A stretch of DNA of 20,000 nucleotides from Bilabrum cf. latius. Taxonomy: Eukaryota. The notes under the pieces are model-generated. The model saw only the letters and a program-made list of their open reading frames with translations. It was not told the DNA's origin and made no database searches. The translations under genes were made by a program, and so were the position numbers. The stretch lies in NCBI GenBank assembly GCA_965178125.1, contig OZ237759.1, forward strand, positions 917,085 to 937,084, written 5' to 3'. Shown in pieces: positions 1 through 20,000 of the stretch. Position 1 is the first letter of the stretch. Every line of letters starts with the position of its first letter.

Positions 1-1797
1 GCCCACTCGCATCGTGCCGCCGTACTGGCAAACCCTTTCCCGAGTCGGTTTGCGGCTGTATCTGCTGCTGGTGGTGGTTCTGCTGCCGCAGCAGGCCCTA
101 GCCCGTCTTCACGCGGAATGTCGTCGTCTCTGCTGTCGAGCTATGAGCGGCTGTCCCAAGCCGTGTCAGTCGACCCAATTCTTGGCCCCATTGACATTGC
201 CCGGGCTCGCCGCGCAACGATGGCAAGCCTTTCATGCTTGCAGTCCTCGGATAACCAGGCCGTCAGCCCGGCAAAAGTGCCAACGGACGCCCAGATCCTG
301 CTTGAGTTTTTAGCCATGGACGTGCCAACTGCATGCGGGTGGACCTGGTGCGAGAGCAGTGACGCTTCTAGTGGATTGGCGCGCCCAACCATACCCTTGG
401 CGAGATGCCCGAAGAGCATTGGCATTTGCCAGCCCACCCGCTTGTCGGACAAACCCATGCTCGATGACTCCTACCACGAGCAAGAGCTGCTCGGGTCAGT
501 GGCAGGTGCACGGCTCTTGGAGATAGAGGGTCGGCTTCGGCGGGTGTCGCTGGCACGCTGCTTGCAGACGAATGCACTGATCAACGGAGCGCCTCTTGCT
601 CCGTCGTTGGCCGCCACAGGGCTGTTGTCCGACTAGGCTGCTGCCGACGTGTTCGGGGGAACTGCCTCTCGTCCAAGCGGGGGTGCATCATGCACGGGGC
701 TGCCACTTGCATCTAAATTTCGAGACCCTGGCTGGCAGTCCATCGTGCAGGTGACTTGGCCCGTCCTCGAGGTGCGAGTACACCAGCACAACGAGTGGGC
801 TGCGGCCCACGAGGCACTGGCAGCCCGCCAGGGCAGCCTGCTCTTGTTTCACGGCACCTCACTGGAGGCCGCCCACTCTGTTATGCAGAATGGGCTGCGG
901 AGCATGAGCGGGACAGCGCACGAGAAAACCGGGGCCGTGCACGGGGACGGCATATACCTGGCTGCACGCCCCCTCATTGCGCTACAGTATGCGAGAGGGC
1001 CGGGCATAGATACAATGGCAAGCATAGAATCAGCATCGACAAGCGATGGCTTGCCTGCGAGGGATTCTACCCGGAAGCGCTGCACTACCTGGGGTCCCCA
1101 TGCATACAGCAGCACAGCTGTTGGTGCTGCACTGGGCGGGGCACCACAAGCAGCAAGTGCACCAAGGGAAGGCTCGTCCCATGGGCCGGCCTCTGGGCGT
1201 GATTCGCTACTACAGAGCCGATGGATGCGCTGCGTATTCGCAGTAGAGGTCGTGCCGGGCACCACGTTGGGATCGGGCGCGCCGCTACACCAAGTGGCCG
1301 GGGAGTCCTCCGCACAGACACAGCTGCCAGGCCTCAAGGCGCCAGACAGGTGTGTACTCGGGACATCAGGTGGTGTGTACGTTCTCAAGGAGCCCCGCCG
1401 TGCGAGAGTCACGCATCTGCTGGTGTTCCACGGCGGCGAGGCGGATGGACCACGGGCCATGACGCACACACAGGTGCGGCAGGTACCGGTAAAATTGCAA
1501 TTTTACCGGTTCGCGGCGACTTAGATAGCAAGCCATGCTGAGCACAAGGATTGTAATGTCGCCACAACCACAGTGGACGTGGTTCAACGCACTAGGGTGC
1601 CAAGAAAGCAGGGCAAGCGGGAGCAAAATGGAGCTCGAAGTGGCAAGCCATCAATGGGTGTTGCAGCCTCAAGCAGACAATACACTGTGGGCCAAGGCAT
1701 AAGTGCCGCTGTGTAGGATCTCGGTATGGACCCTATCAGTGCTGTGGCTATCACAATTGCTATCCTCGCCCTGGCGTTGGTATGGCTTGGTATTTGA
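1..1797 (+). CDS. PARP16-like (PARP6/8/16 clade) mono-ADP-ribosyltransferase with C-terminal tail anchor; 5'-partial; reads through TAG at 634, 1522 and 1714
   Basis: Frame 1 is open from base 1 to TGA 1795-1797 except for three TAGs. Catalytic motifs LFHGTSLEAAHSVMQNGL and HGDGIYLA...ALQYA are present. N-terminal AHSHRAAVLANPFPSRF resembles the PARP16 SYKRDSVLRPFP segment as I recall it. Read-through yields a C-terminal hydrophobic helix (PISAVAITIAILALALVWLGI*), like tail-anchored PARP16. Confidence 0.8.
1485..1510. repeat. Perfect 26-bp palindrome ACCGGTAAAATTGCAATTTTACCGGT
   Basis: The sequence equals its own reverse complement. It lies within a possible 42-nt GT..AG segment (1483-1524). 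Confidence 0.95.
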
Positions 1798-2349
1798 TAC
1801 CAAATTAAATGCATTTCCGCCCACCTGCCACGGCCATAAACTTGCTTATATTGCTATAAGTGTGATTCCTGTGTTTGGTCGTGAAGCACGGCGGGTGAAC
1901 CTAGAGTGCTACCAAAGCCAGATCGGTTGGTTCAACGCCGAACTTATTAAAGTCATGATTCAGATTAAGCGGACATCCAGCATGGCCATGCAAACCGCAT
2001 CCTCGTACGAGTGATCGCCACCTTTGTGACGGGCATTTGCAATATGATATTTTTAGTAAACAATCAGCACGTCACAATGCTATGCACGGTCGATCAGCAC
2101 ATACGGGCATACACACCCCATAGACCAACCGGGGGTTATATACAGTGTGAGATACGGTATCATGACAGAGTTTGGCTTATTGGTTCAGCCGTTTGTGTCG
2201 CGGAATCGCTACGCTGTCCTGATATTGCGTTTGAGATGACCCCGACGTGCTCGTTCAATTTGCTTGCCATCCGTACCGTTGTGCGTAGACAAGCGCTCGT
2301 ACTGCCGATATATTTCATAATGTCTATTGTTTTCCGCAGAGCAAGCACA

Positions 2350-5300
2350 ATGGCTGATCCCTCGAACTAGTTGCGAAAGCAGCGACAAATGGCTGCCATC
2401 GCTGTTGAATCCAAGGATGCCGAAGAACGCAAAGAAGACGCAATGCTCCCTAGCGAACGGCCAGATGATTGGAAAGAAGATGAAAACATGGTGAGATCCT
2501 CAGGCGACTCCCGTAGTTATGTTTGTTTTCTATTTTGTTGCGTGACGGCCACGTTCGTGTTCTTGTGGCCACGTCGAAATCGCAGGCAGAGGAAGACCGG
2601 CTGCTGAAAGAGCGGCTTGAGACTGCGCTTGATGTGCTTCTGGATGCGGGCGCATCTATTCCCCTGCGGACTGCTGCGCTTCGCATACTCAGATCGGAGG
2701 TCAGGTCCTCCACCTCAAGCATGACGGCAGTGCCGAAGCCTTTGAAGTACTTGGCCCCATTTTACGAGCGAATTAAGTCCAGCTTCCTATCAATCGATGG
2801 CCCTCGACTTGGTGAGCACAGCTTCGCGCTAGGCAGCGACGAGGACCCCGTAGCGGCAGCAAAGCAGGCAGCTCTGGTCGTTGATGGCGAGGCTTGGGAG
2901 CCCGGGTCCTCCAAGGCCGAATCGGGGGGTCAGGCTGCATCGGGGACAGGTGCCGATGCCTCTAGTGATGAAAAGAAGGGGTCATCCAAGTCTGGCCCCG
3001 GCAAGAAGGCGCCCAAGGGGGCAGCCTCGGTGCAGGAGGCCCTCAAGGAGCCCATTGAGGGCGTCACCGAGACGCAGTTCCGTAGGTCCTTCGCTGACCT
3101 GCTGTCCGTCCTGGCCATGGTGGGTGGGCGGGAAAACAGAGAGTGTCTGCGGTTCAAGATGCTCGGTCACCCCGCGGACGTGGGTCACTGGGGCCACGAG
3201 CACACCCGTGCGCTGGCCGGGGAGATCGCGCATGAGTACCAGGACAGGCTGCAGAAAGCCGAGCAGCAGATGGAGGACGGGGGGGGTGAAGTACCCTCGG
3301 ACATCGATGTGTCCAGCCTGGTGGACGCCAGCGACCTGCTGTCCCTCGCAGCCCGCATCGTGCCGTACAACATGGCGCACAATGCCGAGGCTGAGGCTGT
3401 GGACCTGCTCCTCGAGACGGGGCGGCTCAAGACCCTGCCCTCTTCCGGTTTCATCGACAAGCGGAACGTTGCTAGGGTGTGTTTGTACCTAGTGCGGTGC
3501 GCTGACTATACCGGTGACGAGGAGGAGCGCATCGAGATCCTCTCGGTGGCATATGCCCTTTACCTGCAGTAGGCCAGGCACGCAGATGCCATGCGAGTCG
3601 CCCTGCGCATGGCCGACAAGGGCCGGGTGCTGCGCGCATTCCGGGCGTGCCGGGACAAGGGCGTTCGTCTTCAACTCGGCTTTCTGCTCGGCCAGCACGG
3701 CTTCCGTGCCGTCGGCCACGGCGCGGACGAGGACGAGGACGACGTGGAGGAGCCGGACATCGGTGTCATCGGCGAGGGCGACGATGAGCTGGGCGGCAAG
3801 GGCTCTGCGCAAGCCAGGATGTCTGACCAAGGAGAACCCCCGGCAGCGGTGCCGCTGACCATCTCGCTGAGCAAGACGGAGAGCCTGACCTTCGGTGCAG
3901 GCGTGCTGGACGACGAGCAGGCAGGCGAGCTGGAGGACGACGTGAAGGACGCTATCGGGAACTGCATGCGGCACAAGCACTACCGGGCGCTGGCACAAGA
4001 GATGGGCGTCGACGAGCCAAAGAGCTCGGAGCAGGTGTACAAGACAAAACTTACGGATGAGTCGCGCCTTGCCACCCGAGGCAGGGAGGAACAGGTGCGC
4101 CTGGACAGCGCCCGCGGCAATCTGGCTGCTTCCTACGTGAGCGGGTTCGTGAATCTTTCTCTGGGTAAGGACAAGGTCATCACGCAGAAGGACGAGCACG
4201 GGCGCGAGTGGTGGCAGAGACAGAAGGGCAACGGCATGTCTGCAGCTGCCGCTGGGCACGCGCTGCTGCACCTGTGGGACTACGAGGCCTTGAACGAGGC
4301 CGAGCGGTTCACCAATGCCACCGATGCAGAGGTGCGAGCTGGAGGCGTGCTGGGCTACGGCATCATCCCTTGCTCCATCGCGAGCGAGGATGACGCCAGC
4401 ATCGGGATGCTCGATGAGTACATCGCTGGCGAAGCAGCGGCTGGGAAGAGCCACGCCGAACGATGCGCTGCCCTGCAAGCTCTCGGTCTCGCGTATGCTG
4501 GCACCGGCAGGATGGATGTCGCAGAGATGCTTATCCCATACGTAGAAGACCTTGGCCCCGACATGAAGAACAAGCTAGATTGCGATCTGGTCTGCAACGC
4601 GGCCTTCTCCCTGGGCATGGTGATGGCAGGCACCGCTGACGAGGACGCCACCATTGCACTGCAATCCATCCTGGTAGAGCCCCCGGAGCCGCTGCTGGAG
4701 CACCCTCTCCGGAGGCACCTGGCTGTTGCGCTCGGGTTGGTGTACATGCAGCGAGGAGTAGCGGCCGAGGACGCGCTGGAGATCATGGCTGCCGCTGGAG
4801 AGGAGTCCCCGCTCGGACGCGAGGCTGCACTGCTTCTCCGAGCCTGTGCATTTGCGGGCACCGGCGATGTCCTCCAGGTGCAGCGCATGCTGCATGCTTG
4901 CGCCGAGCACCCCATGAAGGATCGGCTTGCAGCCGTGGCGAAGATGAAGAAGGAGCGCAAGGAGAACCAGGCCGAGCAACAGGCTAGGCAAGCGCAGCGG
5001 GGCGCAAGTTCAGGGGCTGGTGCCGCTGCAGGGGGTGCCGCCGGTGGCGGGCAGGATGACGACGATGAGGAGATGCAGCGTGAGGAGGAGAAGGCTGCAG
5101 ACCCAGCGAAGTATGCATTCTAGACGGTGGCTGCCCTTTGCCTGGGTGTCATTACGATGGGGGAGGGGCTCGGCACTCAGATGCTTGGACGGGTGGTGGA
5201 TCACCTGCTTCAGTACGGCGATCCTGCGGTCAGGAGGGGCGTCCCTCTTGCTCTCGCCATGGCGTATGCTTCCAATGCGGACTACGGCGTGATCGACACG

Positions 5301-6035
5301 CTCTCCAAGCTGTCCCATGACGGCGATGCAGGCACGGCACGGAATGCAGTCCTCGCCATGGGCATCATTGGAGCAGGCACCAACAACAGCAGGCTGGCCG
5401 GCATGCTGCGGCAATTGTCTGTCTTCAACAAGCAAGATGGAGAGTCGCTTTTCATCGTCCGGCTGGCGCAGGGGCTGCTGGCCATGGGACAGGGCCTCGT
5501 CACCGTGAACCCATTCCACAGCGACGGCATGCTGCTCAAGACGCCGGCAGCTGGTGCGCTGCTAGCTGTGGCCCTTTGCGGGCTGGATCTGGACCGTACC
5601 GTGTTGGCGCAGCACCACCTGCAGCTGTTCAACATTGTCCCGGCCATCTCTCCCAGGATGGTGGTGACCCTGGACGCCAGAGATGCCGACGAGATGGTGC
5701 GCGTGGATGTGCGTGTTGGTACTGCGGTGGAGACTGTGGGGCAGGCGGGCCGCCCCAAGACAATCACTGGGTTCCAGACCCACCAGACCCCAGTGCTCCT
5801 GGCTGCCAAGGACCGCGCCGAGATCGCCCCCACAGACCAGTGGGTGCCCCTCACCTCAACGCTGGAAGGTGTGGTGCTGCTGAGGCGGGTAGAGGACGCG
5901 TCCATGGATGACGCGGTGAGGGCAGCTGGCGTGGGTGAAGTGGATGAGGACCAGCGGAAGGCGGTGGAGAACAAGGGTAGCCCCAAGCCGAAGCGGAAGG
6001 CTAGTGTGGCTACTGGTACCGATCCGTACGACTGA
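2350..6035 (+). CDS. RPN1: 26S proteasome regulatory subunit RPN1/PSMD2, join(2350..2490,2586..6035), about 1196 aa; TAG read as sense at 3570 and 5121 (and 2368 if the first ATG is used; alternative start 2389)
   Basis: ORFs 2523-3572, 3591-5123 and 5127-6035 share one frame and are separated only by TAG. RPN1 motifs occur throughout: SMTAVPKPLKYL, WGHEHTRALAGEIA, PYNMAHNAEAEAVDLLLE, GAGTNNSRLAGMLRQL, VRVGTAVETVGQAGRPKTITGFQTHQTPVLL. Ends TGA 6033-6035. Confidence 0.95.
2491..2585 (+). other. Spliceosomal intron (95 nt, phase 0) in RPN1
   Basis: ATG|GTGAGA donor, T-rich interior and CGCAG| acceptor. Splicing joins ...EDENM to AEEDRLLKERLE, matching the ELSEEDKQL-type N-terminal motif of RPN1. 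Confidence 0.85.
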
Positions 6036-6430
6036 GTCTATGTGATGACTTGCTGCTATGCCACATAGATCTAGCCCTACATCCAAATATTATTTTTTTT
6101 TATCGCGGGTATCGGTTGTTAATGGATCAATGCAGCGTTTCACGTGGAACTTACGTAGATGGAGAGAGGGTAGGCCGAGGCCGAAAAAGAATCCGGATCT
6201 ACGAAGATCTTAAAGTTAAATAGCCTGAGGCCCGAGAACAGCCCGCGTTTTGCATGCCACTAGGTCCAGAATATCTGGTTAAGGTCATATGCATGGAGAG
6301 CTAAGAACAGCAGTATGACAAAAGTACAAACATCCACATCAGGATTATGGGCGGCTGCTGCAGACTAAAATCCTTATGTCGACTTGGACAATCAGATTAT
6401 ATCGCATTTCAGATTTGAATCTCCATTCAT

Positions 6431-6640
6431 GTCCCTATCCATGGCCCTCTCGTCCGATCCACCAAACACCACACTGGCTGGCCCCATCCATAGCCTCTTC
6501 CACGTCCCAATCCATGGCCCTCTCGTCCGATCCACCAAACACCACACTGGCTGGCCCCATCCATAGCCTCTTCCACGTCCCCATCCATGCCCCTCTCGTC
6601 CGATCCACCAAACACCACACTGGCTGGCCCCATCCATAGC
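6431..6640. repeat. 73-bp telomere-adjacent tandem repeat, about 2.9 copies
   Basis: TCCATG(G/C)CCCTCTCGTCCGATCCACCAAACACCACACTGGCTGGCCCCATCCATAGC recurs at 6438, 6511 and 6584 (period 73). The third copy is truncated just before the telomeric tract. Confidence 0.95.
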
Positions 6641-6643
6641 TAC

Positions 6644-7186
6644 GGGTTAGGGTTAGGGTTAGGGTTAGGGTTAGGGTTAGGGTTAGGGTTAGGGTTAGGG
6701 TTAGGGTTAGGGTTAGGGTTAGGGTTAGGGTTAGGGTTAGGGTTAGGGTTAGGGTTAGGGTTAGGGTTAGGGTTAGGGTTAGGGTTAGGGTTAGGGTTAG
6801 GGTTAGGGTTAGGGTTAGGGTTAGGGTTAGGGTTAGGGTTAGGGTTAGGGTTAGGGTTAGGGTTAGGGTTAGGGTTAGGGTTAGGGTTAGGGTTAGGGTT
6901 AGGGTTAGGGTTAGGGTTAGGGTTAGGGTTAGGGTTAGGGTTAGGGTTAGGGTTAGGGTTAGGGTTAGGGTTAGGGTTAGGGTTAGGGTTAGGGTTAGGG
7001 TTAGGGTTAGGGTTAGGGTTAGGGTTAGGGTTAGGGTTAGGGTTAGGGTTAGGGTTAGGGTTAGGGTTAGGGTTAGGGTTAGGGTTAGGGTTAGGGTTAG
7101 GGTTAGGGTTAGGGTTAGGGTTAGGGTTAGGGTTAGGGTTAGGGTTAGGGTTAGGGTTAGGGTTAGGGTTAGGGTTAGGGTTAGGG
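6644..7186 (+). repeat. Telomeric repeat tract (TTAGGG)90, internal in this window
   Basis: Uninterrupted TTAGGG from 6647 to 7186 (540 bp). The G-rich strand is +, the orientation of a right-hand chromosome end. Confidence 0.99.
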
Positions 7187-7246
7187 TATCTAATATAAAG
7201 TCAGGGACAGGGTCGGGGAAAAAATATTTTCATCTTCAATATTTGT

Positions 7247-8477
7247 CGAAAAACGACGTGCTACGATCTCGGTAACTACAGGTGATATGAAGACCGTTCA
7301 AACTGCATCGGGACGGCCTGGGGGCACAACATGGGCCAAATGTTCCCCAGGTTCCGTTCTGGCCGCGCGGCGCCGATATGGGTGTATGAAGAATTTCACA
7401 CCGAAAAACGACGTGCTACGATCTCGGCAACTACAGGTGATATGAAGACCGTTCAAACTGCATCGGGACGGCCTGGGGGCACAACATGGGCCAAATGTTC
7501 CCCAGGTTCCGTTCTGGCCGCGCGGCGCCGATATGGGTGTATGAAGAATTTCACACCGAAAAACGACGTGCTACGATCTCGGCAACTACAGGTGATATGA
7601 AGACCGTTCAAACTGCATCGGGACGGCCTGGGGGCACAACATGGGCCAAATGTTCCCCAGGTTCCGTTCTGGCCGCGCGGCGCCGATATGGGTGTATGAA
7701 GAATTTCACACCGAAAAACGACGTGCTACGATCTCGGCAACTACAGGTGATATGAAGACCGTTCAAACTGCATCGGGACGGCCTGGGGGCACAACATGGG
7801 CCAAATGTTCCCCAGGTTCCGTTCTGGCCGCGCGGCGCCGATATGGGTGTATGAAGAATTTCACACCGAAAAACGACGTGCTACGATCTCGGCAACTACA
7901 GGTGATATGAAGACCGTTCAAACTGCATCGGGACGGCCTGGGGGCACAACATGGGCCAAATGTTCCCCAGGTTCCGTTCTGGCCGCGCGGCGCCGATATG
8001 GGTGTATGAAGAATTTCACACCGAAAAACGACGTGCTACGATCTCGGCAACTACAGGTGATATGAAGACCGTTCAAACTGCATCGGGACGGCCTGGGGGC
8101 ACAACATGGGCCAAATGTTCCCCAGGTTCCGTTCTGGCCGCGCGGCGCCGATATGGGTGTATGAAGAATTTCACACCGAAAAACGACGTGCTACGATCTC
8201 GGCAACTACAGGTGATATGAAGACCGTTCAAACTGCATCGGGACGGCCTGGGGGCACAACATGGGCCAAATGTTCCCCAGGTTCCGTTCTGGCCGCGCGG
8301 CGCCGATATGGGTGTATGAAGAATTTCACACCGAAAAACGACGTGCTACGATCTCGGCAACTACAGGTGATATGAAGACCGTTCAAACTGCATCGGGACG
8401 GCCTGGGAGCACAACATGGGCCAAATGTTCCCCAGGTTCCGTTCTGGCCGCGCGGCGCCGATATGGGTGTATGAAGA
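7247..8477. repeat. 155-bp tandem satellite, about 7.9 near-identical copies
   Basis: The unit starts CGAAAAACGACGTGCTACGATCTCGG at 7247, 7402, ... 8332. Identical 89-aa ORFs recur every 155 bp. I noticed single substitutions only in the first copy (GGTAACT) and the last (CCTGGGAGC). Confidence 0.98.
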
Positions 8478-8729
8478 TTTGCATGTTTATTCAATATGCA
8501 TGGTTTATCTGTCAATTGTAGAATGGGTATGGTGTACATGACAGTTGTATTTGCTGTGTGGATTGCTTTGATCTAAGGTATTAACTGGTTGACACGTCAA
8601 GACTCAACAGAATGCCTCCCGGCTCCTAATGCTGCGTCCGAATGGGTCAATGGCAGACACTTTGGCAAACTCCTCTCACAAGCTGGCCCAGCTGCCACTG
8701 ACCTCAATTGCCGTCCCCCTGCCTGCCTC

Positions 8730-10268
8730 TCACTCGTCACCGAAAGCTGCTAGGAGCGCTTCCACAGCGTCGACGTCTGCCGCATTGAGATCTCCTTTCG
8801 CCGTCTTCTCGAGGGCCGTCATCAGGTTTGCGAACATTTCCAACTCGCGGTCCCTCTCTTCAATTGTTGCCTCCACGTCCTCGCGCATGTCTTTGAGAGT
8901 CCGGCTGACGCCCATCGCGCTGTCATCGCAGGCAGCAAGGATGCGGTCCACCAGGTGCCGCTGCTAGTCGGTGAAGGCGGTGTCCTCCATTCCACTGTTG
9001 TTGTCAGAGTCGTCTTGCTGGTTCTGGCCGTCGTTTTCTTCTTCCTCAACCAGCTGCTCCTCATCCTCCTCGTCCTGCTGCTCAAACCCCATTGGAGCGT
9101 CGTCCTCGTCCTGCTCTCCAGCTGCGTCTGCGCGGTACCGACCACCGATGTCCTCTTCATCTTCGTCAGAGTCCTGACGAGGCAGTGATGCTGCTGCTCC
9201 ACTCCTTGCGCCACTTGCTCCCCTTTTCTCCTGTTCAACGGCGCGGCGTGCTCCTCTGCCATTGCCTGGTTGGACGACTGCCGGTCGCTCGGGCTGCCTC
9301 TATGCCCGCGGCTCAGCCTCAGCCGCCTTCTTGCCCTTTGACTCTGCCGGTTGTGCACCCTTGCCCTTCGCCTTGCCCTTCGACTTGCCCTTCGACTTGC
9401 CCTTCGACTTGCCCGCGGCCTTGGTCCTGGCCTTTGCCTTGGCCTTTGCCTTGGCCTTTCTCTCGGCCTCCGCCTCTCGCTTGGCTCTGAGAAGATCGTT
9501 GTTCAGTCGCTCGGTCGATGAGTCGCTGGACTCTGAGCCGTCTGTATCCGGCTCACCCCGTGCTTTCCGGGCCGTGTAGGCCCTCTGGCCCTTCACATTG
9601 TTGTCGGGGTTGTCCTCGTCCTCATCGTCGTCGTCGTCCATGGCACTCCGTTTGCCCTTCCGAGCACGGGATGCCCCACTCGGCGAGGTAGCAGCGGCTC
9701 CCGAAGAGCCACCTTGATCTCCTGCTGCAGCCCCGGCAGAGTCCTTGACTGCCATGTCGAACACCTCTATGAATACAGCCTCCATGCCTCCGCGTGCACG
9801 TACAGAGGCCGTCCCAGCTCCATTATCGCAGATGAACTTGAGCACGTTCTTGAAGCGCCTGCGCAAGCCGTCTAAGCCTGCCTTGAAGAATGGGTTTGTG
9901 GTGGTGGAGTAGCCACACTCGCGCAGAGCCGTGAGAAGCTGCTTCATCTTCCGAAAGCCTGGCCAGTCGGAGCTGCTGGCTGACGCGTCTGGGCACAGGC
10001 GGCTGTTCAGCGCTGTGAGCACGCCAAATGGCACCTCAAACTCATCCAGCGCCAGCATGGCATCCACGCAGGCCCTGATGCCCTCCCTCTTGGTCCCTTC
10101 GTAGTGCTCCGAAGATCCGCAGAGCAGCCCGCAATCCTGGTGGAGGCCCACGAGGGAGATAAGCAGGATCTGCTTGGCCGCGGAAGTGTCGACGCCTGAA
10201 GCCAGGGAGGCCACGACAGGGCGAGATGCCTTGGTGTGCTTGGCGCTGTAGCTCTTTGCGGCGGCCAT
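8730..10268 (-). CDS. Hypothetical protein, about 512 aa (TAG read as sense at 9300-9302 and 8964-8966): N-terminal globular region, Lys/Ala/Gly-rich basic repeats, acidic tracts, C-terminal helical segment
   Basis: ORFs 9300-10415 and 8730-8951 share a frame. The sequence between them is open apart from the two TAGs and encodes a D/E/Q-rich segment. The likely start is ATG 10268 (MAAAKSYSAK) and the end is TGA 8732-8730. Confidence 0.75.
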
Positions 10269-10506
10269 AGTACTCTGCGGTGCCAGGGGAACACGGGTGA
10301 GGTCACGAACAGGTGCTTGGATGCGACAGGGAACACGGGCACGAGACCCAGGGTTACTCCTGGACAAGCTCGAGGGCAAAAAAAAAAAAAAAGGCACCCA
10401 CATAACCCCGCGCACTCGGTCTCAGACCTGGGACCCATGATGTTGGGTCGATCCCCCAGTCGTGGGGGGAACGGACCCCAGCCCAGAAAAAAAATTAAAA
10501 AAAGAT

Positions 10507-10586
10507 CGCCCCAACGGGAATCGAACCTCGGGGGTAGGCCGGGGTGCGATTACCAACCGTACGCAATACCACTACACCACCACAGC
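10507..10586 (-). ncRNA. tRNA-like / Pol III type-2 element (degenerate tRNA, possible GGT anticodon loop) followed by oligo-T
   Basis: The minus strand reads GCTGTGG-TGGTGTAGTGGTA...TTGGTAA...GAGGTTCGATTCCCG-TTGGGGCG. A box TGGTGTAGTGG (10579-10569), B box GGTTCGATTCC (10527-10517), T7 run just downstream. The stems pair poorly, so it is probably not a canonical tRNA. Confidence 0.55.
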
Positions 10587-11160
10587 AACCCACGCGAAAC
10601 CGAAAAAAAATTACAGATTCGCATCAAAAGTGCACGCAACTTGCACTTGTCACGCCGAAACCTACCCGTTCACCCAACGAGCAGCGCGAAATCAGAAACA
10701 CTCATATTGCGCTCCTTGTATTCAATTGCAGAGGCGCATACTTGGCATATAGCTACTATAGCATATTGTGCATACAACCCTAAAGCAAACGTGAGTCAAA
10801 TCGATGGGGTATGCGTGGGGATTGCCTTGCGCAATGCGCTTGCTGCAACGTGGTTCAGACGTTTGCCTCAATTGCGCGACGGCAAGCACTCGTTGGAACT
10901 AATCTCGCGCATATTATCAAATAATATAACATACTGCAAACAATTGCGCGGCGATATATAGGCTGCGCGCCCAATGCTCACTTTGCTTGCGGTAGGTGTG
11001 CTGCGACAACATTTGTGGTGGCCCGGATCAGGTTGCGGAACCTGATGCGCGGCACCGCCGTGACGAGTGCGCCACCAGGGAACAACGCATCGTACCATCA
11101 TACTAATCACATCCCAAGTATATTATATATCCTTGTGGCATCTCTGTCCGCAGTCTGGTC

Positions 11161-14100
11161 ATGGCGCAGTCCACGTACGACGCCACCAAGCATGTGAAGG
11201 CTCTCGATTACCTCCGGGCCTTCCTGGACCGCCGCGCGAAGGGCTACGCCCAGAACCCGCATCGCGTGCGCATCGGAGTCCCAGGGCCACTTCAACCAGG
11301 AGGTGCCGCCCTGCCTGGCCCGCCGGCCGGCGAGGCGCAGGCCCAGATCCCGGCCCAGGTGGGGCCAGCGCCAGGCGGTCATGCCGCCGGGGGGGGCGAT
11401 GCGGCAGGCCTGCCGGCCCCCGTCCCAGCCATCGGCGAGCATGCTCCGGAGCCCCAGCACCAGCAGCAAGAGGGCGCCCAACAACCACCACCGGGTGCAG
11501 CTCTTGCTGCTGGCCAGCAGGCGATGCCCGCCGCCCCGCCCCAGCACCCCGCTGGTCCGGGTGCCAACCTGCCGGTCCCAGGAGGCCTGCAGCCCGAGCC
11601 GCCAGCTGGCGATGCCGACGCCTTCCTCCCGATCCCGGAGCCCCAGCAGGAGCCTGCAGGTGGGCCAGCCGGCGTCGGTCCGGCCCCTCCAGCAGCCGAG
11701 CAGCAGCCAGCTGCCCAGGCTGCCCAGCACCAACTCGTCCCTGGGCCCGTGCCTCTCGCCGAGGTGCCCGTCCTGGCCGGGGTCGGCGCAGGGGAGGACG
11801 CGATGGAGGACGACGAGCCCCCAGAAGCGGTCCAGGCCATCTTCCTCGGGCGCCAAGCCGCCCACGCGGCCACCCAGGCAGCTCGGCAGGCCATGGTCTG
11901 GGATGCTCAGGGCCAGCAACCGCTCTTCGGGGCAGAGGGAGGAGCGCCCGAGCTGCCCATCCCCGGAGTCGTGTTCGCTGCCGGTGCAGAGGCAGCCGGC
12001 GCCCAAGGCGGTGGCGCAGGCCCAGACGCCGGAGGGGAGGTCGGTGCGCCACCCGTGCAGGCGTGGAACCTGGTCGTCGGCGACCCTGGGGGAGCGCATG
12101 GAGAGGAGGCCCTGGCCGTCAACCTCCCGCCCGAGTACCGGTTCGGCATGCACGAGGCGACAGACGACCTCGCGCAGCACCCCATGCTGGCCTACCACAT
12201 ATGGGAGGTGGACGACGAGGCGGTGCAGGCCCTGCAGGGCCTGCTGACCTGCGTTGGCAGGCAGGAGCTGCCTCCCGAGGTGTGGAGGGCGCTCGCACCT
12301 CCAGTGATGGAGACGGTGACCATGCAAGGCATGCGGCGCTGGTGGGCGTACCAGAGGCGCGCCGTTGTCGTCGTGGACAGCCTCCTGCATGCCGAGACTG
12401 ATGCTGCCGGCGTGGAGCAGCGCGCGCAGAGGCGCGGCCGCTTTCTCGTGCAGCTCGTTGGCTGGACTGACATCACCAAGATGCTGGAGAGCGAAGACCT
12501 GAACGAGGAAGGGGCTGCCTTCATTCGGAGCAAGCTGGCTTCGGTGGCGGTCAGCTTCTGGCCGTCTCCGATGCTGGCGGAGCCCGGGCTGCACAGCCAC
12601 AAGCTCTCTCCGCTCCGCACGGAGTGGGATCACTACATCGAGTACAACCGCGTGGACGAGACGGTCTTTGACGCGGTCGGGCTCTCCGAGCAGCCTCCAG
12701 CGTTCATGTACGAGGACGAGGACGAGGACGAGATGGAGGAGGGGCCGGCGGCGCAGCCGGCTGGGGCGGAGGAGCATGCAGAGGGCGACGAAGATGCCGG
12801 GTATGAGGCTGGGGAAGGCGAGTGGGGTAGGGAAGGCCAGTGGGACTCGGACGGAGACCAAGGTGGCGACGAGGAAGCGGATGGTGGAGATCCTGCCGCG
12901 GAGGCTTTCGGAGCTGCGGATGCCGAGCTGGAAGGCGAGCCTGAAGAGGAGCAGGAGGCCGCCCCGGATGTGCTGCGGAACCCACCAGACGGCATGGCGG
13001 CCCCCGTGGCGGTCCGCTCTGAGCTCTCCGATGTCGACGCCATGGAGGTGGTCGGGATCCTATCCGGCGCCGGAGCCTCCCAGGAGGTGCAGACCAGCCC
13101 GTTCATGCTGGCGCTTGGGGGGCCGGTGTCACGGCTCCTGCTGGACGAGCCGCTGGACCAAGCCTACGGCCTCATCGACGTGCTGATTGGAGCCGACTCG
13201 GCGACGCAGGATGGGGTCCTCTGCGGGCGCAGGGGTCTGCAGAGGGACGGGGGGCAGATCAGGGTGCAGTCGGCCACGCAGCAGCACCAGCGCACCGAGG
13301 TGGACACGAGCGGCTCATCCAGGCCCCGGCTCGGCTACAGCATCGTCTTCAACCGGCACATCCCCACGTAGGAGCGGGACAATCCCGGCACGCCGAGGAG
13401 TCACGGCGCGTACTACTCACCCCGCATCGACGTCGCGTACCTTGGACCGATGGGGATCCAGAACATGGGCGTGGATTCGGAGCCGCTGCGGCTGCACCGC
13501 ATCCATCACGCTCTCCCTGCACCAGCAGGGGACCACGTGACCGTCCAATCCCTGACATCGGACGTTCGAAGTGCAGCTCGTCGCTTCCACCAGAGCAGCG
13601 AGGAGGTTGGGGTGCTAGAGGAAGCTGAAGCGATCCTGGAGGGAAGCACCGGCACAGTGCGAGGCAATGCCAGGGCCGTGAAATCCGCACGTGCCACGCT
13701 CCGCAAGTACCTCACGATGATGCCCAAACAGCGCGGGGTCGGATCTGGCGACGTCTCGGTCTCTGTCCTCCTGGCGGGGGCGGCTGAGGTGCGAGTCGTG
13801 CTACCGGAGGGCGGTGTGGCTCGGGTGTTTGGCGTTGCTCACGCAGGGTCTGAGGAAGAGCAGGCCTCCTTGCGCACACTCGCGAGGCGCTGGAACATCC
13901 GGCGACTGGAGGGAATGCGCCTCGTTGGAACGCCGTTCGACCAGGCCGTGCAGTCGCTCCTGATTGGCATCGCAGGTGCCATCAACTACGTGAGAGAGAA
14001 GGAGGGGTACCGCGGGCCCGAGTTCATGGTGCAGTCGACCCCGAGGACTGCCACGACGGCGCAGGGACTCTCCGCATCGTACGCGATTGTAGCAACCGAC

Positions 14101-17100
14101 TCGCCCGTCGGTGTCTCTCGCGGAAGCACCCACACCGAGACTTTGAGTCCTGGAGACCGTCACATGGGCGTGCGTGGGACTGCTGAGCCTGATGGCGGGC
14201 ATCGCATCAGGCCCGGGTACTTCCTGTGCGAAGTGCTCCGGGTTCTGAGCGAGGACGCGGCCCTGCATCCCACCCAGGTCAGCCATCTGCCCCACAGGCT
14301 GAGATATCCTGACGGACTGAAGATCCAAGGGGTCCTGGCGTGCTCGATCTACCGAATCCTGGTCGTCGGGGGCCAGAACCAGGCGGCGGTTGCTGTGATG
14401 CGATCCCTGATGCTGCGACAGGCTCCGGCCGCTGGTGAGCCTGAGGAGGACCCTCCGGACCACGGCGGGCACCCTGTAGTGTTCGTCGACCCTCTTGCCG
14501 CCGGGAGGGACGCCATCCGCATGGCGACGGAGCTCGGGCAACATCGACCAGAGATCCAGTGCCAGGACCCCGTGTTGCTCTCCATGGACCTGGGCTTCAT
14601 GGCAGGTGGCGGCGACATGCACGCTGCGTTTCCGAGCGTGCTGGGCCTGCGTCATGCCATGGCACTTGCGGGTGATGCCGTGGCCGACATCTCCTCCGTA
14701 CCGGGCTTCGGACAGGTGGGGAGCTAGTTCGTCTTCCCAATGCAAGTGGATGAAGAGAACGTGAACTGCCTGCTCATGAGCCCATCTCTGGGCAGTGTGC
14801 AGTTCAGGGCTCGTGCCAGAGGCGATACGCAAGCTGCCATGACTAAGCATGACTTTCAGCACGTGGCTGAGCTGGTATCGCAGGCCACCCGCGAGCGGGA
14901 CGACGAGTTTGTTCGTAAGCTCTTGCCCGCGATGCTGAGCGTATCTCACGGGGTGCAGATGTACGTCGAGCAGGCGTTCCGCTCCACGAGGCTCAGCGGC
15001 GACAGTCACCAACGGCTTGGGTCTCGGCTGTATGGTGAGCTGGAGCGATGCAGGCAGCAGGTTCCAAAGGTGGGGCGGGCTGCTGCGGCCACCATGGCAA
15101 GGGTTGCGCACGACGAGGCCACCGAGATCGCGTGTCGCAGGTTGCAGGCTATAGGTGACGCTCGAGCATCGCTTCGCGTCGAATTCAGCATGGCAGGGCC
15201 CGGTCTTCTGATGGGACTAGCAATGGCGCTGGGACTTGAGGACGGACACGCCAGTCTCGTGGATGCCCTGGCGGAAGGAACGTCGACAGTTCGAGCGCCC
15301 TTCTTTGACACAGTTGCTGCCATGGTGCAGCGGGAGGTGGCGCATGCCGTCACGCGGGACTTGGAGGAGGCGGTCCGAGGGGCCATGGCTACGGCGGCCA
15401 GTATCGAGATAAAGGCTATGGCGGCTGAGCAGGTGTCGGACGGTTTAGCTGTTCAGCAGGCAGTCGCAGGGGAGCTGCGCATGCTTGCGCTGGATGTGTC
15501 GCAGATGGTGGCCCCCACCCAGACTGGGCAAGCCATGACCCGGTCCATCATGGAGTCCGTCCTTCCGCGTCCCGAGGCCAGACTGCGGCAGGCCATCTGG
15601 CATGTGGCGGATGGCACCATTGCGGACCGACGGCGAACGGTGGAGAAGGATCCACGCAACTGGAACGGCCAGTGCCGCGTAGCCCAGGCAACTCTGGCTA
15701 TGGTGCTTCAGGTTGTGACCAGGGGCGGGGTGAGGGAGATCACGGATCCGGAGGCCCGCTCTCCAGAGGTGCTTCCGAAGCTGCTGCACGGCGTAGCGTC
15801 ACTCATCGTGGTGGGTGTGCAGTCGGCCTCGCTCATTGCCTGCACGGGGTAGCGACCACTCGCGGTAACACGGGCTGACAGCCGGCGCCACGTTGTCGGA
15901 TTCGCCGCTGGGACTGAGTCTCCCAAGGACTGCGCCTTGCTGGATCTGAGGTCGTTCCTGCAGAGCGGCAGTGACGATCCCTGCGTGGAGCTCGGCCGGG
16001 TCATTGGTCGAATGCTGCACCCGGCCTTGGTGTCTGCCGTGCTGATCAACGCACCAGGCCCTCTACTGACTGCTGTAGTGCGAATCAGCCCAGGGAGGCT
16101 TGCGTCCGAGGTGGTCATGCAGCTCGAGAATACCGTGGCTCTGACGCAGAGCATTGAGCAGCAGGCCAAAGCGGCCACCTTACTGGGAGCTCCAGCCTCG
16201 CTGATGCACGAGACCATGAGAAACCTGGGAGTAACGCTCGAGGACATGGTCTCCGCGCTCCAGAAGGCGTACGAGGACGTTCCCTTGGCGGCAATTGGTG
16301 CATTTGCGGCCATGGTGAGAGGAGGCAAGAACGAGAAGTTTCCGCATGGGACGGCGATTCCGGTGAACACCCCTGGTGTGCCATTTCCGCTAGCGCTGTG
16401 TCTTACCGGCTAGGATGACGACGGACGGTTCAGGCTAGGGTCGCTCCCGCTGGGCGGAGTGCCGGATACCATAAGGGTGGATGGGACCCAGTCTGCCTCC
16501 CCACTGCAGCTGATGCTTGCTGGCAGGGCGGCCACCGTGCTACACGACAACCTGCTCCAGATTGCTATCGGCACGGTCCGTCGGCAGGGCCGTTTGGTCA
16601 AGGAAGAGGAACTCGACTTGGTTCGCAGGGGCACGCACGCAGGGGAGCGCTTGACGCTGGCGCTGCCGGGTTCGACGCAAGAGGCTGCCCGTGTCGACAG
16701 CCTCACCCGAGCTGCAGTCTTGGCAGCCATGCGGCGGATCTAGAAGTTCAGATATATGAGCACTTCCGTCTACGACAGGACCAGGCGACTGCTTCGTGCA
16801 CGGTAGGTGGAGCCTTGGGATGCGCTTGACGTGGAGGATATGCGGAGGCCCTGGCGGGACTAGTTCCGCTTGCCATTGGAGGAAGGTACCATCGGTGAGA
16901 GTACTGCAGCGGTACTTAGGCGTGGAAGCTTCGAGACCAGACGGGCTAGCCTTGCGCTGATGGGCATCGCCACGGTGGCGGGTCGGGCTTGCCAGGAGGA
17001 GGCATAGCAGCCCGTAGTGCGAGCAACACGTTTGGTAGTAGGGTGGTTGAGGTCCGATGTCTCTGACGCAATGGTCCTGGACGATGGAAGCGAACAGCGT

Positions 17101-18147
17101 CAAGCTGCCGTCAACGCTGCTGCAGGGGCCGAGATGCTCCTCACGGAACTGTGTGGTGTCGAGACCGTGAAGCTCTTGGCCAAGGTGCAAGCGCTCATGG
17201 ACCGATCCGAGGCTGCACATCTGCGCCACAGAGACGAAATTATGCATGGAGATCTGCCGGAGACGAACAGCCGGCAAGAGCGCGTAGGTTTTCGTATCGG
17301 CTGTGCAATCGCGGCAAGTAGAGGGCAAGAGGCTTTGGAGAAGCTGAGGAGACTCTCATCGCTGGTCCGGATGGCTCGACGGGTGGTGAAGACAGCTCGC
17401 AATGCTTTGCACGGCGGTGCAAGTTGTCACGCAGTGCTTGCCATGGTTCGTGCGTCCATTGGACGGGTCCGAGGCCTACGAAATGCCGTGGAGCGAGCGC
17501 GTGAGTTGGCTGGAGCTGCCGAGGTCGAAGGGGAAGGAGCAGCGGAGCGGCTGGGGAGACTGGGTGCTCTCGGATGGCAGGCCATCCAAGCGGAGCGAGT
17601 TCGTCTGGTGGTGCAAGCAGCTAGAGGAGCCGCTCGCTTGTACAGGCGTAGTCGGACATATCCAGTTGGATCCGCCAGATAGAAGGTCTGCCTGCGAGGT
17701 ACGCTGCTTCTGACGGGGTTTGTCAGATCCTAGCGACATCCCTTTGCAGTAGAGCCCAGTCCTTTGGCACGGACGCTTGCTGGGTGGAGCGTGGTGCAGG
17801 AGTGGAAGCATGTGTTGCGCCAGCACTCTTTGTTGATGGGCCTGGGTGTGGGACTTGGCGATGAAGACGAGCGGGTGCAGTAGGTGTGCCAGACGGTGTT
17901 TCGTGCCAACGACGATCCTATGGAGGTAGAATTGGCCGAGGGGCCCGGCAACTGGAGTCCTGCCGAGATCAGTGCATTTAAAGCAGCGGATGTCTGGGGA
18001 GAGGACCAAGGGAAGATGGCCCTGTCCATTGGAAAGGTCTAGGGCTTGCTCGCATCATGGCGGAGAACAGCGAAGCATCTTCAAGAGACCGCTCAAGCTG
18101 ATGGCCGCGGAAAGGGCAGGATGCAGCTCTAGCACATGTTCGGTTGA
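11161..18147 (+). CDS. Giant hypothetical protein, 2328 aa, with 13 in-frame TAG codons; Pro/Gln/Ala/Gly-rich N-terminus, acidic linker, long C-terminal body of unrecognised family
   Basis: ORFs starting 11161, 13450, 14740, 15937, 16459 and 17017 are all in frame 1. Manual translation of the gaps and the 3' extension shows only TAG (13369, 14725, 15850, 16411, 16741, 16804, 16861, 17005, 17680, 17731, 17881, 18040, 18130) until TGA 18145-18147. Confidence 0.85.
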
Positions 18148-18264
18148 TCCTGTCAGGTGTCTAGACGTGTTGAAGTAGATACTGTTCTTGTAGATCCAAA
18201 TCTATACAACGAGAAAAAAAAATCATATCAATAAGCATGCTCGAAATGTCAAGAAATCCAGAAG

Positions 18265-20000
18265 GACCCACACCACGCCCATCCTACAACCGCGATGAGA
18301 CATCCACACACCGGAATGAGACCTGCCACATTGAGGTCACATCTGGTGGATTAGAATGGTCCGTGTCGGGCATCCTTAGCTCGCAGATGCGCCATTGCTG
18401 CCGCAGGATAGGAATGAAGGAGCTTGGCCCCGAAAACGTGGTGGATTTTTTTCTCCCATTTCAGTAAACCAAGTACGCTAAATGATTAAATACAATAATA
18501 CAAGCTCACGAATTAGCTAATCGGATTTGAAATTCCCCCACAAAGGGGAAAGGTTAGGAATAGGGTTTATGTCATAGACCGGTGAGATTGAGACTTGGTT
18601 GAAAGATTTGAAACTCCGAGTTATTCCAGGGAACATCGTACATAGGTGCATAGACATCATGTGGAAAGTGTAAGGCATTGGAAATGTTTCCCGGCTGAGA
18701 AAACATGGATCAAAGATTCGGGTTAGGGCTCGTATTTGTGTGGCGTTACACTTGGTAGGGAACAAGCAATGTTGTGTCGTCATGATACACTTGGGACAAT
18801 GTCAAGTACCATCAAGCACAAGTGTATGCGATTTGAAGACATTGCATCCATAAGTTGCCGCGATATTGAAGATCAAAGTTCTGAAGGTTAGGGTTAGGGT
18901 TAGGGTTTTCCCTGAGGGGCGTGCATTAGCTGTGAATGAGATTTTTTTGATTTCTAGGGTTCATTTGCACTTTGAATCATCATGTATTATGTGTGTGAAG
19001 TTTGGAGATTGGCTGACATACAGTTATTGAGCACTTGAGCAATACAAGTAGTTGCCTTTGCTCATCTGGTCGGCGCCACGCCCACAGTGACTGGGCGACT
19101 GGCGACCCACACCACGCCCATCCTACAACCGCGATGAGACATCCACACACCGGAATGAGACCTGCCACATTGAGGTCACATCTGGTGGATTAGAATGGTC
19201 CGTGTCGGGCATCCTTAGCTCGCAGATGCGCCATTGCTGCCGCAGGATAGGAATGAAGGAGCTTGGCCCCGAAAACGTGGTGGATTTTTTTCTCCCATTT
19301 CAGTAAACCAAGTACGCTAAATGATTAAATACAATAATACAAGCTCACGAATTAGCTAATCGGATTTGAAATTCCCCCACAAAGGGGAAAGGTTAGGAAT
19401 AGGGTTTATGTCATAGACCGGTGAGATTGAGACTTGGTTGAAAGATTTGAAACTCCGAGTTATTCCAGGGAACATCGTACATAGGTGCATAGACATCATG
19501 TGGAAAGTGTAAGGCATTGGAAATGTTTCCCGGCTGAGAAAACATGGATCAAAGATTCGGGTTAGGGCTCGTATTTGTGTGGCGTTACACTTGGTAGGGA
19601 ACAAGCAATGTTGTGTCGTCATGATACACTTGGGACAATGTCAAGTACCATCAAGCACAAGTGTATGCGATTTGAAGACATTGCATCCATAAGTTGCCGC
19701 GATATTGAAGATCAAAGTTCTGAAGGTTAGGGTTAGGGTTAGGGTTTTCCCTGAGGGGCGTGCATTAGCTGTGAATGAGATTTTTTTGATTTCTAGGGTT
19801 CATTTGCACTTTGAATCATCATGTATTATGTGTGTGAAGTTTGGAGATTGGCTGACATACAGTTATTGAGCACTTGAGCAATACAAGTAGTTGCCTTTGC
19901 TCATCTGGTCGGCGCCACGCCCACAGTGACTGGGCGACTGGCGACCCACACCACGCCCATCCTACAACCGCGATGAGACATCCACACACCGGAATGAGAC
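18265..20000. repeat. 839-bp tandem repeat (2 full copies plus the start of a third, running off the window) containing short telomere-like motifs
   Basis: GACCCACACCACGCCCATCC starts at 18265, 19104 and 19943. Identical ORFs occur at 18517 and 19356. Each unit has (TTAGGG)3 (18888-18905 and 19727-19744). Confidence 0.97.

Follow-up and report, generated by a model that had tools for sequence, protein, structure and literature searches.

The window, by which we mean the whole 20,000-nucleotide stretch of DNA analysed here, contains a host side (a PARP-like gene, RPN1 and a minisatellite) followed by a telomeric tract and, beyond it, a cassette of ~13 kb (Table 1). The cassette consists of a linker, a 155-bp array, ORF A, a tRNA-like unit, ORF B and an 839-bp array. 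The preliminary description had given the order RPN1, 73-bp repeat, (TTAGGG)90, 155-bp array, two divergent ORFs and 839-bp array with TTAGGG seeds, and TRF, ORF calling and Pfam searches confirmed this layout. It had also argued against a head-to-head telomere fusion, which we likewise rule out, since there is no CCCTAA tract in the window; outside the telomeric tract, one copy of CCCTAA occurs, at 10778. The octamer AACCCTAA near 10776 was considered as a telomerase-RNA template and dropped, as it is one short match within the 5' region of ORF B. Three further features had escaped the preliminary description: the 59-bp linker with its telomere-like hexamers, the intron in the 5'-UTR of ORF B, and the tRNA-like unit with A and B boxes.

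Table 1. Features of the window (positions counted from its first nucleotide).
Feature	Position	Strand	Evidence and remarks
PARP-like gene	118..1797	+	PF00644, E 4.7e-08; 3 TAG, TGA stop; frame open to the window's left edge; host context
RPN1, 26S proteasome subunit	2350..6035	+	Pfam PF17781, E 7.7e-72; host gene
RPN1 intron (inferred)	2491-2585	+	GT-AG; ends read from sequence; exon 2 in frame
73-bp minisatellite, x2.9	6431..6640		TRF; adjoins telomeric tract
Telomeric tract, (TTAGGG)90.7	6644..7187	+	TRF, 100% matches; G-rich strand on +, right-hand chromosome-end orientation
Linker, 59 bp	7188..7246	+	degenerate telomere-like run 7196-7213, same strand, 13/18 matches
155-bp array, x7.9	7247..8477		TRF, 99%; six inner units identical
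ORF A, 512-aa orphan	8730..10268	-	ORF call; 2 TAG under TAG=Q; several diverged alleles
tRNA-like unit	10497..10590	-	A box 10579-10569, B box 10527-10517, then T7 and T8 runs
ORF B 5'-UTR intron, 363 nt	10791..11153	+	GT-AG; GTGAGT donor, CAG acceptor
ORF B, 2,328-aa orphan	11161..18147	+	13 TAG; no internal TAA/TGA under TAG=Q
839-bp array, at least 2.07 identical units	18265..20000	+	(GGTTAG)3 plus one further TTAGGG per unit

Telomeric tract, linker and arrays

The telomeric tract measures 544 bp and contains no variant repeat. In the linker, the score of the telomere-like run was matched or beaten in 18/3000 shuffles and in 0/35 non-coding control windows, the reverse strand reaching at best 7. 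The cassette was compared with short-read contigs from four public runs of three studies (X1, X3, X5 and X6, of which X1 and X3 belong to one study that may be the window's own source, in which case two independent studies remain; runs X8-X10, with small shares, were left out). The 155-bp unit contains no TTAGGG and had 0 matches in GTDB and IMG/VR; contigs of X3 and X5 carry its loop joint (8464->8310). In a single contig of X3, an error-rich run, the sequence leaves this array at 8406 into (TTAGGG)n on the same strand, as a telomere-addition end. The 839-bp array comprises two complete, identical units and a third interrupted by the end of the window, and its loop joint (19103->18265) was found in X1, X3 and X5. 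Each unit carries 4 TTAGGG and 0 CCCTAA; base shuffles gave 0.30 on average, and 0/5000 of them reached 4. A search for a terminal inverted repeat of the cassette gave nothing beyond a 15-nt match (E 0.056).

The junction of RPN1 and cassette is that of the assembly as given. In a misjoin, the tract would be the true chromosome end of RPN1, and the assembler would have run through TTAGGG into a real, repeated cassette from elsewhere. The tract is indeed perfect and telomere-sized, repeated blocks generally draw misjoins, and relatives of RPN1 were found on short contigs only. However, there is no N gap at the join, and the linker starts with same-strand hexamers resembling telomere repeats, which would be expected after a long stay next to a tract. 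An overlap join would itself presuppose reads that pass from TTAGGG into the linker, and with them an internal tract before some copy of the cassette. The identical tandem units of both arrays point to a long-read assembly, in which a tract of 544 bp would be short. We consider a misjoin unlikely. Searches with RPN1 returned 15 loci in JGI metagenomes, with a best-segment identity of <=49%, so no synteny can be drawn from them, and one locus in GTDB, which was spurious.

Genetic code and coding content

TAG encodes Gln on both sides of the telomeric tract, and the stop codon of all four genes is TGA. TAG codon 801 of RPN1 aligns with Q in 46/56 homologue residues (25 more alignments are gapped there); codon 284, with R as its one aligned residue, is uninformative. 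TAG accounts for 15/159 Gln codons in ORFs A and B vs 5/76 in RPN1 and the PARP-like gene (Fisher p=0.62), and the codon use of ORF B correlates with that of RPN1 at 0.93. These figures uphold the earlier claim that the cassette uses the host's UAG code. Long residence, which had been read from that code, accounts for the host code, the host-like codon use and the spliceosomal intron no better than an origin of the genes within the host would. The UAG-only code of the host is a separate point of interest; no description of a UAG=Gln nuclear code in a stramenopile was found in a literature search covering listings and the openings of abstracts, with few subscription papers within its reach.

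Purifying selection acts on ORF B: synonymous changes make up 16/23 of the variants shown vs 26% expected (p=1.5e-5). Its 5'-UTR intron is spliced, as the joint 10790->11154 is present in one contig of X6 (depth 4.93, short side 69 nt), a run that is RNA by our guess, is labelled 'probably DNA' and has zero depth on both arrays, to which we give no weight; X1 and X5 contigs run through the intron region continuously, with no gap. Antisense ORFs within ORF B (556, 642 and 355 aa) were rejected as shadow frames, since RPN1 has one too (637 aa) and the variants are synonymous in the + frame. The only relatives of ORF B found were near-identical copies. Residues 621-1800 had no relative among 1.84 billion protein representatives, and none of the pattern matches in JGI metagenomes (177) or IMG/VR (8) was confirmed. 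ORF B contains no intact Walker A, DExD/H, YxDD or CCHC motif. By eye, the region ~930-1215 resembles decayed SF1 helicase motifs, as in a putative Upf1/Aquarius-like pseudo-helicase with a RecA-like fold and motifs I-III decayed; tools gave this no backing, and phmmer with residues 911-1250 against PDB returned 0 matches at E<=10. Two single-sequence AlphaFold models of ORF B were poor (mean pLDDT 38-39); with these, Foldseek found nothing in PDB at E<=0.001, VIA gave a best Z of 5.3, and the 7 rows from BFVD at E<=0.001 all had a TM-score of 0.08 or less. These helicase searches and models weigh neither for nor against such a fold.

ORF A is composed of an N-terminal domain of ~175 aa, a K/R-rich tract (259-365), an acidic tract (366-430) and a C-terminus that is probably helical. 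All of its variants shown (8/8) are non-synonymous, and it would be a fast-changing, possibly nucleic-acid-binding protein. It had no family match in the collections searched (Pfam, whole and in pieces, and PHROGs among them) and no homologue among proteins of 281-896 aa, and 0 of 595 pattern matches in IMG/VR were confirmed. Walker-A-like and DExD-like regex matches in ORF A were discounted, being located in low-complexity tracts. The tRNA-like pattern, composed after the site was seen, has 1 match in the window and 0 in 200 shuffles. At this site ARAGORN reported 0 tRNAs and Rfam had no match, and folding was no better than that of shuffles (z +1.0 to +1.3).

In the window, which ends at 20000, no reverse transcriptase, endonuclease, integrase, capsid or intact helicase was detected. 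Specifically, ORFs A and B contain no Pfam reverse transcriptase or endonuclease, no Penelope-type reverse transcriptase and no [YF]xDD motif, and whole or in pieces they match no Pfam family, RecQ helicase included. No capsid, packaging or polymerase gene was found in the 12.8 kb in view with Pfam, PHROGs, protein representatives or IMG/VR. Rfam identified no hammerhead ribozyme; there is one core-motif match (8825, within ORF A), lacking stem II.

An assembly contig of 12,766 bp contains pieces of ORF B with 98.7% identity at the protein level (1869/1894 aa); the span from the linker to the second 839-bp unit of the window is 12,755 bp, which is no more than a coincidence of length, the comparison with this contig being of protein and not of DNA. 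The contig counts towards the subtelomeric reading set out below. Such a stand-alone contig close to cassette size would also suit an autonomous selfish element, episome-forming or virus-derived, in which ORF B would serve replication or strand invasion and ORF A nucleic-acid binding or packaging, and which would target itself to telomeres. The two orphans, the lack of any relative of ORF B residues 621-1800, the compact divergent layout with its tRNA-like unit and the SF1-like motifs seen by eye point the same way. Against this stand the missing intact motifs of ORF B, the low-complexity setting of the ORF A regex matches, the lack of any match for the cassette ORFs in Pfam, PHROGs, NCBIfam, PDB sequences and IMG/VR, and the lack of a terminal inverted repeat above the 15-nt match. 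We regard such an element as very doubtful. Its boldest form is no less doubtful. Here the cassette would represent a new kind of autonomous element resident at telomeres, lacking reverse transcriptase, transposase and capsid. The 2,328-aa protein would bring about the copying of the element from one chromosome end to another or by way of an episome, together with a fast-evolving partner protein of basic/acidic type and a Pol III RNA resembling tRNA; the host would be a probable stramenopile whose UAG=Gln nuclear code is so far unreported.

Contig depth and sequence variants

The cassette was found in runs of three studies, and contig depth along it shows 3-10-fold differences, on a scale that is not set against a single-copy gene and does not equate to copy number. 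In X1, ORF B contigs have depths of 352.5 and 257.8 vs 95.2 for the contig with the window's ORF A allele; the corresponding values are 823-2326 vs 228 in X3, and 11.6 vs 2.0-2.4 for a close relative of that allele in X5. The window's ORF A allele makes up ~22-23% of depth in two different studies (139/642 in X1, 26/113 in X6). A six-change variant of ORF A (8977-9003) is dominant in X1, X5 and X6, and three of its sites also occur in X3. Further mixed sites in X1 lie at 10445 (166/375) and 10541 (165/413). Diverged ORF A paralogues are suggested by loose contig ends at 8837, where 23/30 positions match the window. Joints that leave 8353 in X3, with a side of 22 nt, and low-complexity loose ends in X5 and X6 are likely spurious and were disregarded. 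Over the compared stretch, which did not reach the ends of the cassette, no contig joined its end to its start. Strain mixture or polyploidy could produce the ~1:3 allele ratio, but would less easily produce totals that are unequal along the block (in X1, ~640 at 8990, ~400 at 10611 and ~260 at 16000). Thus, on uncalibrated depth, the cassette looks multi-copy, with near-identical variant copies, and the unequal depths and co-existing variants bear out the expectation of a repeated rather than single-copy block.

Arrays and genes scale together like a single block: the 839-bp unit has 1.9-3.4x the depth of ORF B in 3/3 DNA-like runs, and the 155-bp loop has a depth of 9.5x in X5, near the 7.9 units in the window. 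This argues against ORFs A and B being a lineage-specific host gene family in segmental duplicates or a tandem array, with the tract as a fixed relic of an earlier lengthening of the chromosome end and movement over, as do the identical array units and the 544-bp tract free of variant repeats, which look recent. The host code and codon use, the spliceosomal intron, the purifying selection, the presence of the block in runs of three studies and the absence of any detected mobility enzyme are consistent with such a family, which we nevertheless consider quite improbable.

Origin of the cassette and known systems

The best explanation, to which we assign a probability of roughly 55%, is that the cassette is a subtelomeric block similar to Y' and TLH, passively spread between chromosome ends via recombination at telomeric tracts; we infer this mobility. 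As part of the same reading, ORFs A and B would be expressed passenger genes, B conserved and A fast-changing. The RPN1 end would formerly have terminated at the 73-bp repeat and (TTAGGG)90, and its terminal tract would have paired with the internal tract ahead of another cassette copy; break-induced replication would then have copied the cassette onto the RPN1 end, as in Y' capture in yeast. Recombination of terminal and internal tracts in this style would yield exactly the layout observed. Telomerase could heal the TTAGGG seeds of the 839-bp units and breaks in the 155-bp array, giving copies cut at varied points, and spread would be passive, by host recombination.

Y' elements of Saccharomyces carry a helicase ORF and form extrachromosomal circles. 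Y' is captured when a terminal tract recombines with an internal one (PMC4222662, available part). The cassette resembles Y' as a repeated, gene-bearing block placed, in the assembly, on the distal side of an internal telomeric tract of the same strand, with a linker that is also telomere-like. Unlike Y', the cassette contains no intact helicase, no sequence similarity was found between them, and copies of ORF B itself were the only homologues. It is also distinguished by its size (~13 kb), its two divergent orphans and tRNA-like unit, and an internal tract of 544 bp, whereas X-Y' internal tracts are described as short in the same part of that source (PMC4222662). As in TLH of Magnaporthe, a near-identical gene cassette lies between blocks of tandem repeats, some with TTAGGG (here the 839-bp unit, with 4 copies, but not the 155-bp unit), and copies are differently truncated; however, TLH is a RecQ helicase gene, which was not detected here, and the accessible text does not describe TLH beyond a full-length internal tract, where the present cassette lies as assembled (PMC1635262). 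The 839-bp units resemble the Sultan element of Chlamydomonas (~850-bp unit) in being head-to-tail and near-identical with a telomere-like seed, which in Sultan is the proposed primer of telomere healing (PMC8287924, in the portion available). The median copy number of Sultan arrays is 14, however, against the 2-3 units per cassette that depth suggests here. This likeness is one of design, not of compared sequence.

HHV-6 and Marek's disease virus carry telomeric repeats in their terminal repeats. As with these integrated viruses, the cassette genes lie beyond a host telomeric tract; unlike them, the cassette has no detected viral gene, uses the host code, contains a spliceosomal intron and has just two ORFs before the closing array. 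The retroelements MoTeR and TRAS/SART (PMC7367193) and the endonuclease-less, Penelope-like Terminons (PMC6431247) sit inside telomeric repeats or beyond them, with interstitial tracts left behind. On the parts of these sources available, they depend on reverse transcriptase, and Terminons in addition on a hammerhead ribozyme at the 3' end, next to reverse-complement telomeric repeats; the window yielded neither the enzyme nor the ribozyme. The cassette might be a non-autonomous form, like MoTeR2. The preliminary description had proposed an element that inserts or recombines into telomeres, which is partly supported: recombination in the manner of Y' fits best, and the retroelement and herpesvirus analogies are not supported, as no reverse transcriptase, endonuclease or viral gene was detected in the window.

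On the Y'/TLH-like reading, the cassette belongs to no named family, and no description of such telomeric cassettes in protists was found in the literature search (of the coverage given above). Cassettes beyond internal telomeric tracts are well studied as yeast Y', and retroelements or helicase blocks of this kind are known from a few fungi and animals; what Y'-type genes do for host or element is not known to be settled. If the Y'/TLH-like reading is true, the locus holds two unrelated, expressed orphans with opposite patterns of change, and would offer a second system for asking whether such blocks are selfish cassettes or a backup for telomere maintenance. As a case from a distant protist, independent of yeast Y', it would suggest that hitch-hiking on telomeres is a general niche, requiring neither reverse transcriptase nor helicase.

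Telomeric tract and repeat arrays

Outward from the host gene RPN1, the parts of the window follow the order that the preliminary description had set out, and its statement that an inverted CCCTAA tract is absent also agrees with the window sequence, in which no inverted telomeric tract was found.

Features of the window and of the cassette, in order of position
Feature	Position	Strand	Remarks
PARP-like host gene	118-1797		PF00644; 5' end open in the window
RPN1	2350-6035		host gene; Pfam E 7.7e-72
73-bp repeat			between RPN1 and the telomeric tract
Telomeric tract	6644-7187		perfect (GGGTTA)90.7
Linker	7188-7246		59 bp
155-bp array			7.9 units, directly after the linker, distal to the tract
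ORF A	8730-10268	-	orphan
A-box/B-box unit	10590-10378	-	between the ORFs
Candidate intron	10791-11153		donor GTGAGT; acceptor 7 nt upstream of ATG
ORF B	11161-18147	+	orphan
839-bp array			after the two divergent ORFs; at least 2 identical units

Each 839-bp unit carries four TTAGGG motifs, all on the + strand (a number reached in 0 of 5000 shuffles), and no CCCTAA. The linker contains a same-strand degenerate run in which 13 of 18 positions match (TTAGGG)3, equalled in 18 of 3000 shuffles and in none of 35 control windows. A 15-nt inverted match (14/15, E 0.056) between the linker (7228-7242) and the 839-bp unit (18863-18877), shortly before a TTAGGG seed, may be due to chance. One contig of the public sequencing run X3 passes at 8406 from the 155-bp unit into same-strand TTAGGG repeats, as telomere healing would produce. 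The join of RPN1 to the cassette, as assembled, is putative; a local misjoin, by which a cassette from elsewhere was attached to the RPN1 end, is an unlikely explanation, although it would leave the cassette itself standing and would probably still require an internal tract ahead of some copy.

Copies and variants

Part of the block 8500-18260 is present in 10 of the 11 listed runs (5 studies), and at least half of it in five of them. Depth was compared in four runs from three studies (X1 and X3 from one study, X5 and X6) against 8310-19110, which contains a single unit of either array; all data are short-read contigs with one depth figure per contig, and X1 and X3 may be the window's own source. 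Relative to the contig that carries the ORF A allele of the window or a close one, the depth of ORF B contigs is higher by 2.7-3.7x in X1, 4.8-5.8x in X5 and 3.6-10x in X3; these are ratios between parts of the cassette. At position 8990, the window's allele accounts for 22% of the X1 depth and for 23% of that in X6; because the split is alike in different studies, paralogues in one genome fit better than a strain mixture. Summed depth in X1 drops along the block (about 640, 400, 260), which would not be expected from one polyploid locus, and within ORF B of X5 there is no drop. A fixed duplication in the host, as another account of the cassette, appears improbable.

The 839-bp unit reaches 1.9-3.4x the depth of ORF B, and in X5 the 155-bp loop reaches 9.5x, which suggests that arrays and genes travel together. 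Diverged relatives of the 155-bp unit (8310-8480), with several loose ends and very high summed depth, occur in X1 and X3, and the unit may therefore form a more widespread satellite family as well. At 18726 and 19105, contigs of X1 pass from the 839-bp unit into other sequence, one directly after a TTAGGG-like seed; these represent variant units or array exits.

Genetic code, host and coding capacity

Read with TAG as glutamine, ORF B comprises 2,328 codons with 13 TAG and no TAA or TGA, and ORF A 512 codons with 2 TAG; TGA is the stop codon of all four window genes (118-18147). The earlier claim that the cassette uses the host's UAG code holds; TAG makes up a similar share of Gln codons in the cassette (15/159) and in the host genes (5/76; p=0.62). 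TAG codon 801 of RPN1 corresponds to Q in 46 of 56 aligned residues, whereas TAG codon 284 had a single aligned residue (R) and so carries no information on the code. A relative with 89% RPN1 identity (P0072) terminates at the position matching TAG codon 284, so it probably has the same TAG. TAG is unevenly distributed within ORF B: among Gln codons it numbers 1 of 74 in the 5' half vs 12 of 65 in the 3' half (p=0.0006), where GC3 drops to about 0.6 as well; the 3' portion may be younger or under less constraint.

A midpoint-rooted FastTree phylogeny was built from 111 RPN1 C-terminal sequences, namely that of the window and those of the 110 of 120 listed hits aligned over >200 residues. The window falls inside a clade (support 0.925) that includes Paraphysomonas vestita, which tentatively suggests that the host is probably a stramenopile. 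Passages of PMC11687900 name Iotanema, Protocruzia, Hartmannula and Trochilia as UAG-only glutamine cases; the present nuclear code, which reads UAG as Gln and stops at TGA in what is probably a stramenopile, is not among the cases named there. The PARP-like gene product has a predicted hydrophobic tail at its C-terminus.

No family was found for ORF A or ORF B in Pfam, PHROGs or NCBIfam, nor any match in PDB sequences. Residues 621-1800 of ORF B retrieved 5 proteins from 1.84 billion representatives, all fragments of one near-identical copy; a word-index search yielded 7 such pieces (1869/1894 residues identical), each on a 12,766-bp contig, presumably one common contig. A screen of 7,998 candidates with lengths of 281-896 aa yielded no homologue of ORF A. 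The variants examined were 40, from a set with 68 further ones, in which within-run and between-run differences are mixed. Among the 23 in ORF B, 16 are synonymous vs 26% expected (p=1.5e-5, transition bias uncorrected); all 8 in ORF A are non-synonymous, which by itself falls short of significance (about 0.1 for neutral change). A single contig of X6, a run classed as 'probably DNA' by the tool, skips the candidate intron with GT..AG ends, and contigs of X1 and X5 are continuous there. Given the synonymous excess and this skip, ORF B is a real gene. Its residues ~930-1215 resemble decayed SF1 helicase motifs by eye; sequence and fold searches lent this likeness no support, and the structure models were of too low quality to speak for or against it.

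The A-box/B-box unit lies on the strand of ORF A, and behind it come the runs T7 and T8 and, about 100 nt further, T15. It was not called by ARAGORN or Rfam; we interpret it as a Pol III unit that probably derives from a tRNA. The copies differ here by a cluster of indels and substitutions. The unit may encode a Pol III RNA, or it may represent the relic of a SINE or act as a chromatin barrier.

Spread between chromosome ends and known systems

In yeast, a Y'-less telomere acquires Y' through recombination of its terminal repeats with the internal tract before another Y', followed by break-induced replication (PMC4222662). Such a gain would produce the layout of the window: old end, full tract, cassette and seeded array. 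By this analogy, the RPN1 end would once have been terminal, its repeats would have recombined with an internal tract ahead of a cassette copy elsewhere, and break-induced replication would have added the cassette with its seeded array. We favour this passive spread of a Y'-like cassette between ends by recombination, at a probability of roughly 0.55. Of the initial proposal of an element that inserts or recombines into telomeres, recombination is retained, together with the Y' analogy, and the retroelement and viral analogies are not; the proposal is thereby supported in part.

Certain herpesviruses integrate into telomeres; this suggested analogue found no support, as no viral gene was found in the cassette. 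The TRAS/SART analogy likewise fails, since the RT expected of MoTeR and TRAS/SART elements (PMC7367193) was not found in the cassette, and neither RT nor hammerhead, as in Terminons (PMC6431247), was found there. That the cassette is an autonomous element is likewise improbable. At Magnaporthe TLH ends a gene block likewise lies between repeat arrays, TTAGGG motifs occur in the repeats and truncation is variable (PMC1635262), a design that the cassette shares; the Sultan units of Chlamydomonas, repeats of ~850 bp that also carry a seed (PMC8287924), resemble the 839-bp unit in design. The cassette differs from Y' and TLH in having no homology to them and no demonstrable helicase; it is real and unusual, a member of neither group, and works as they do.
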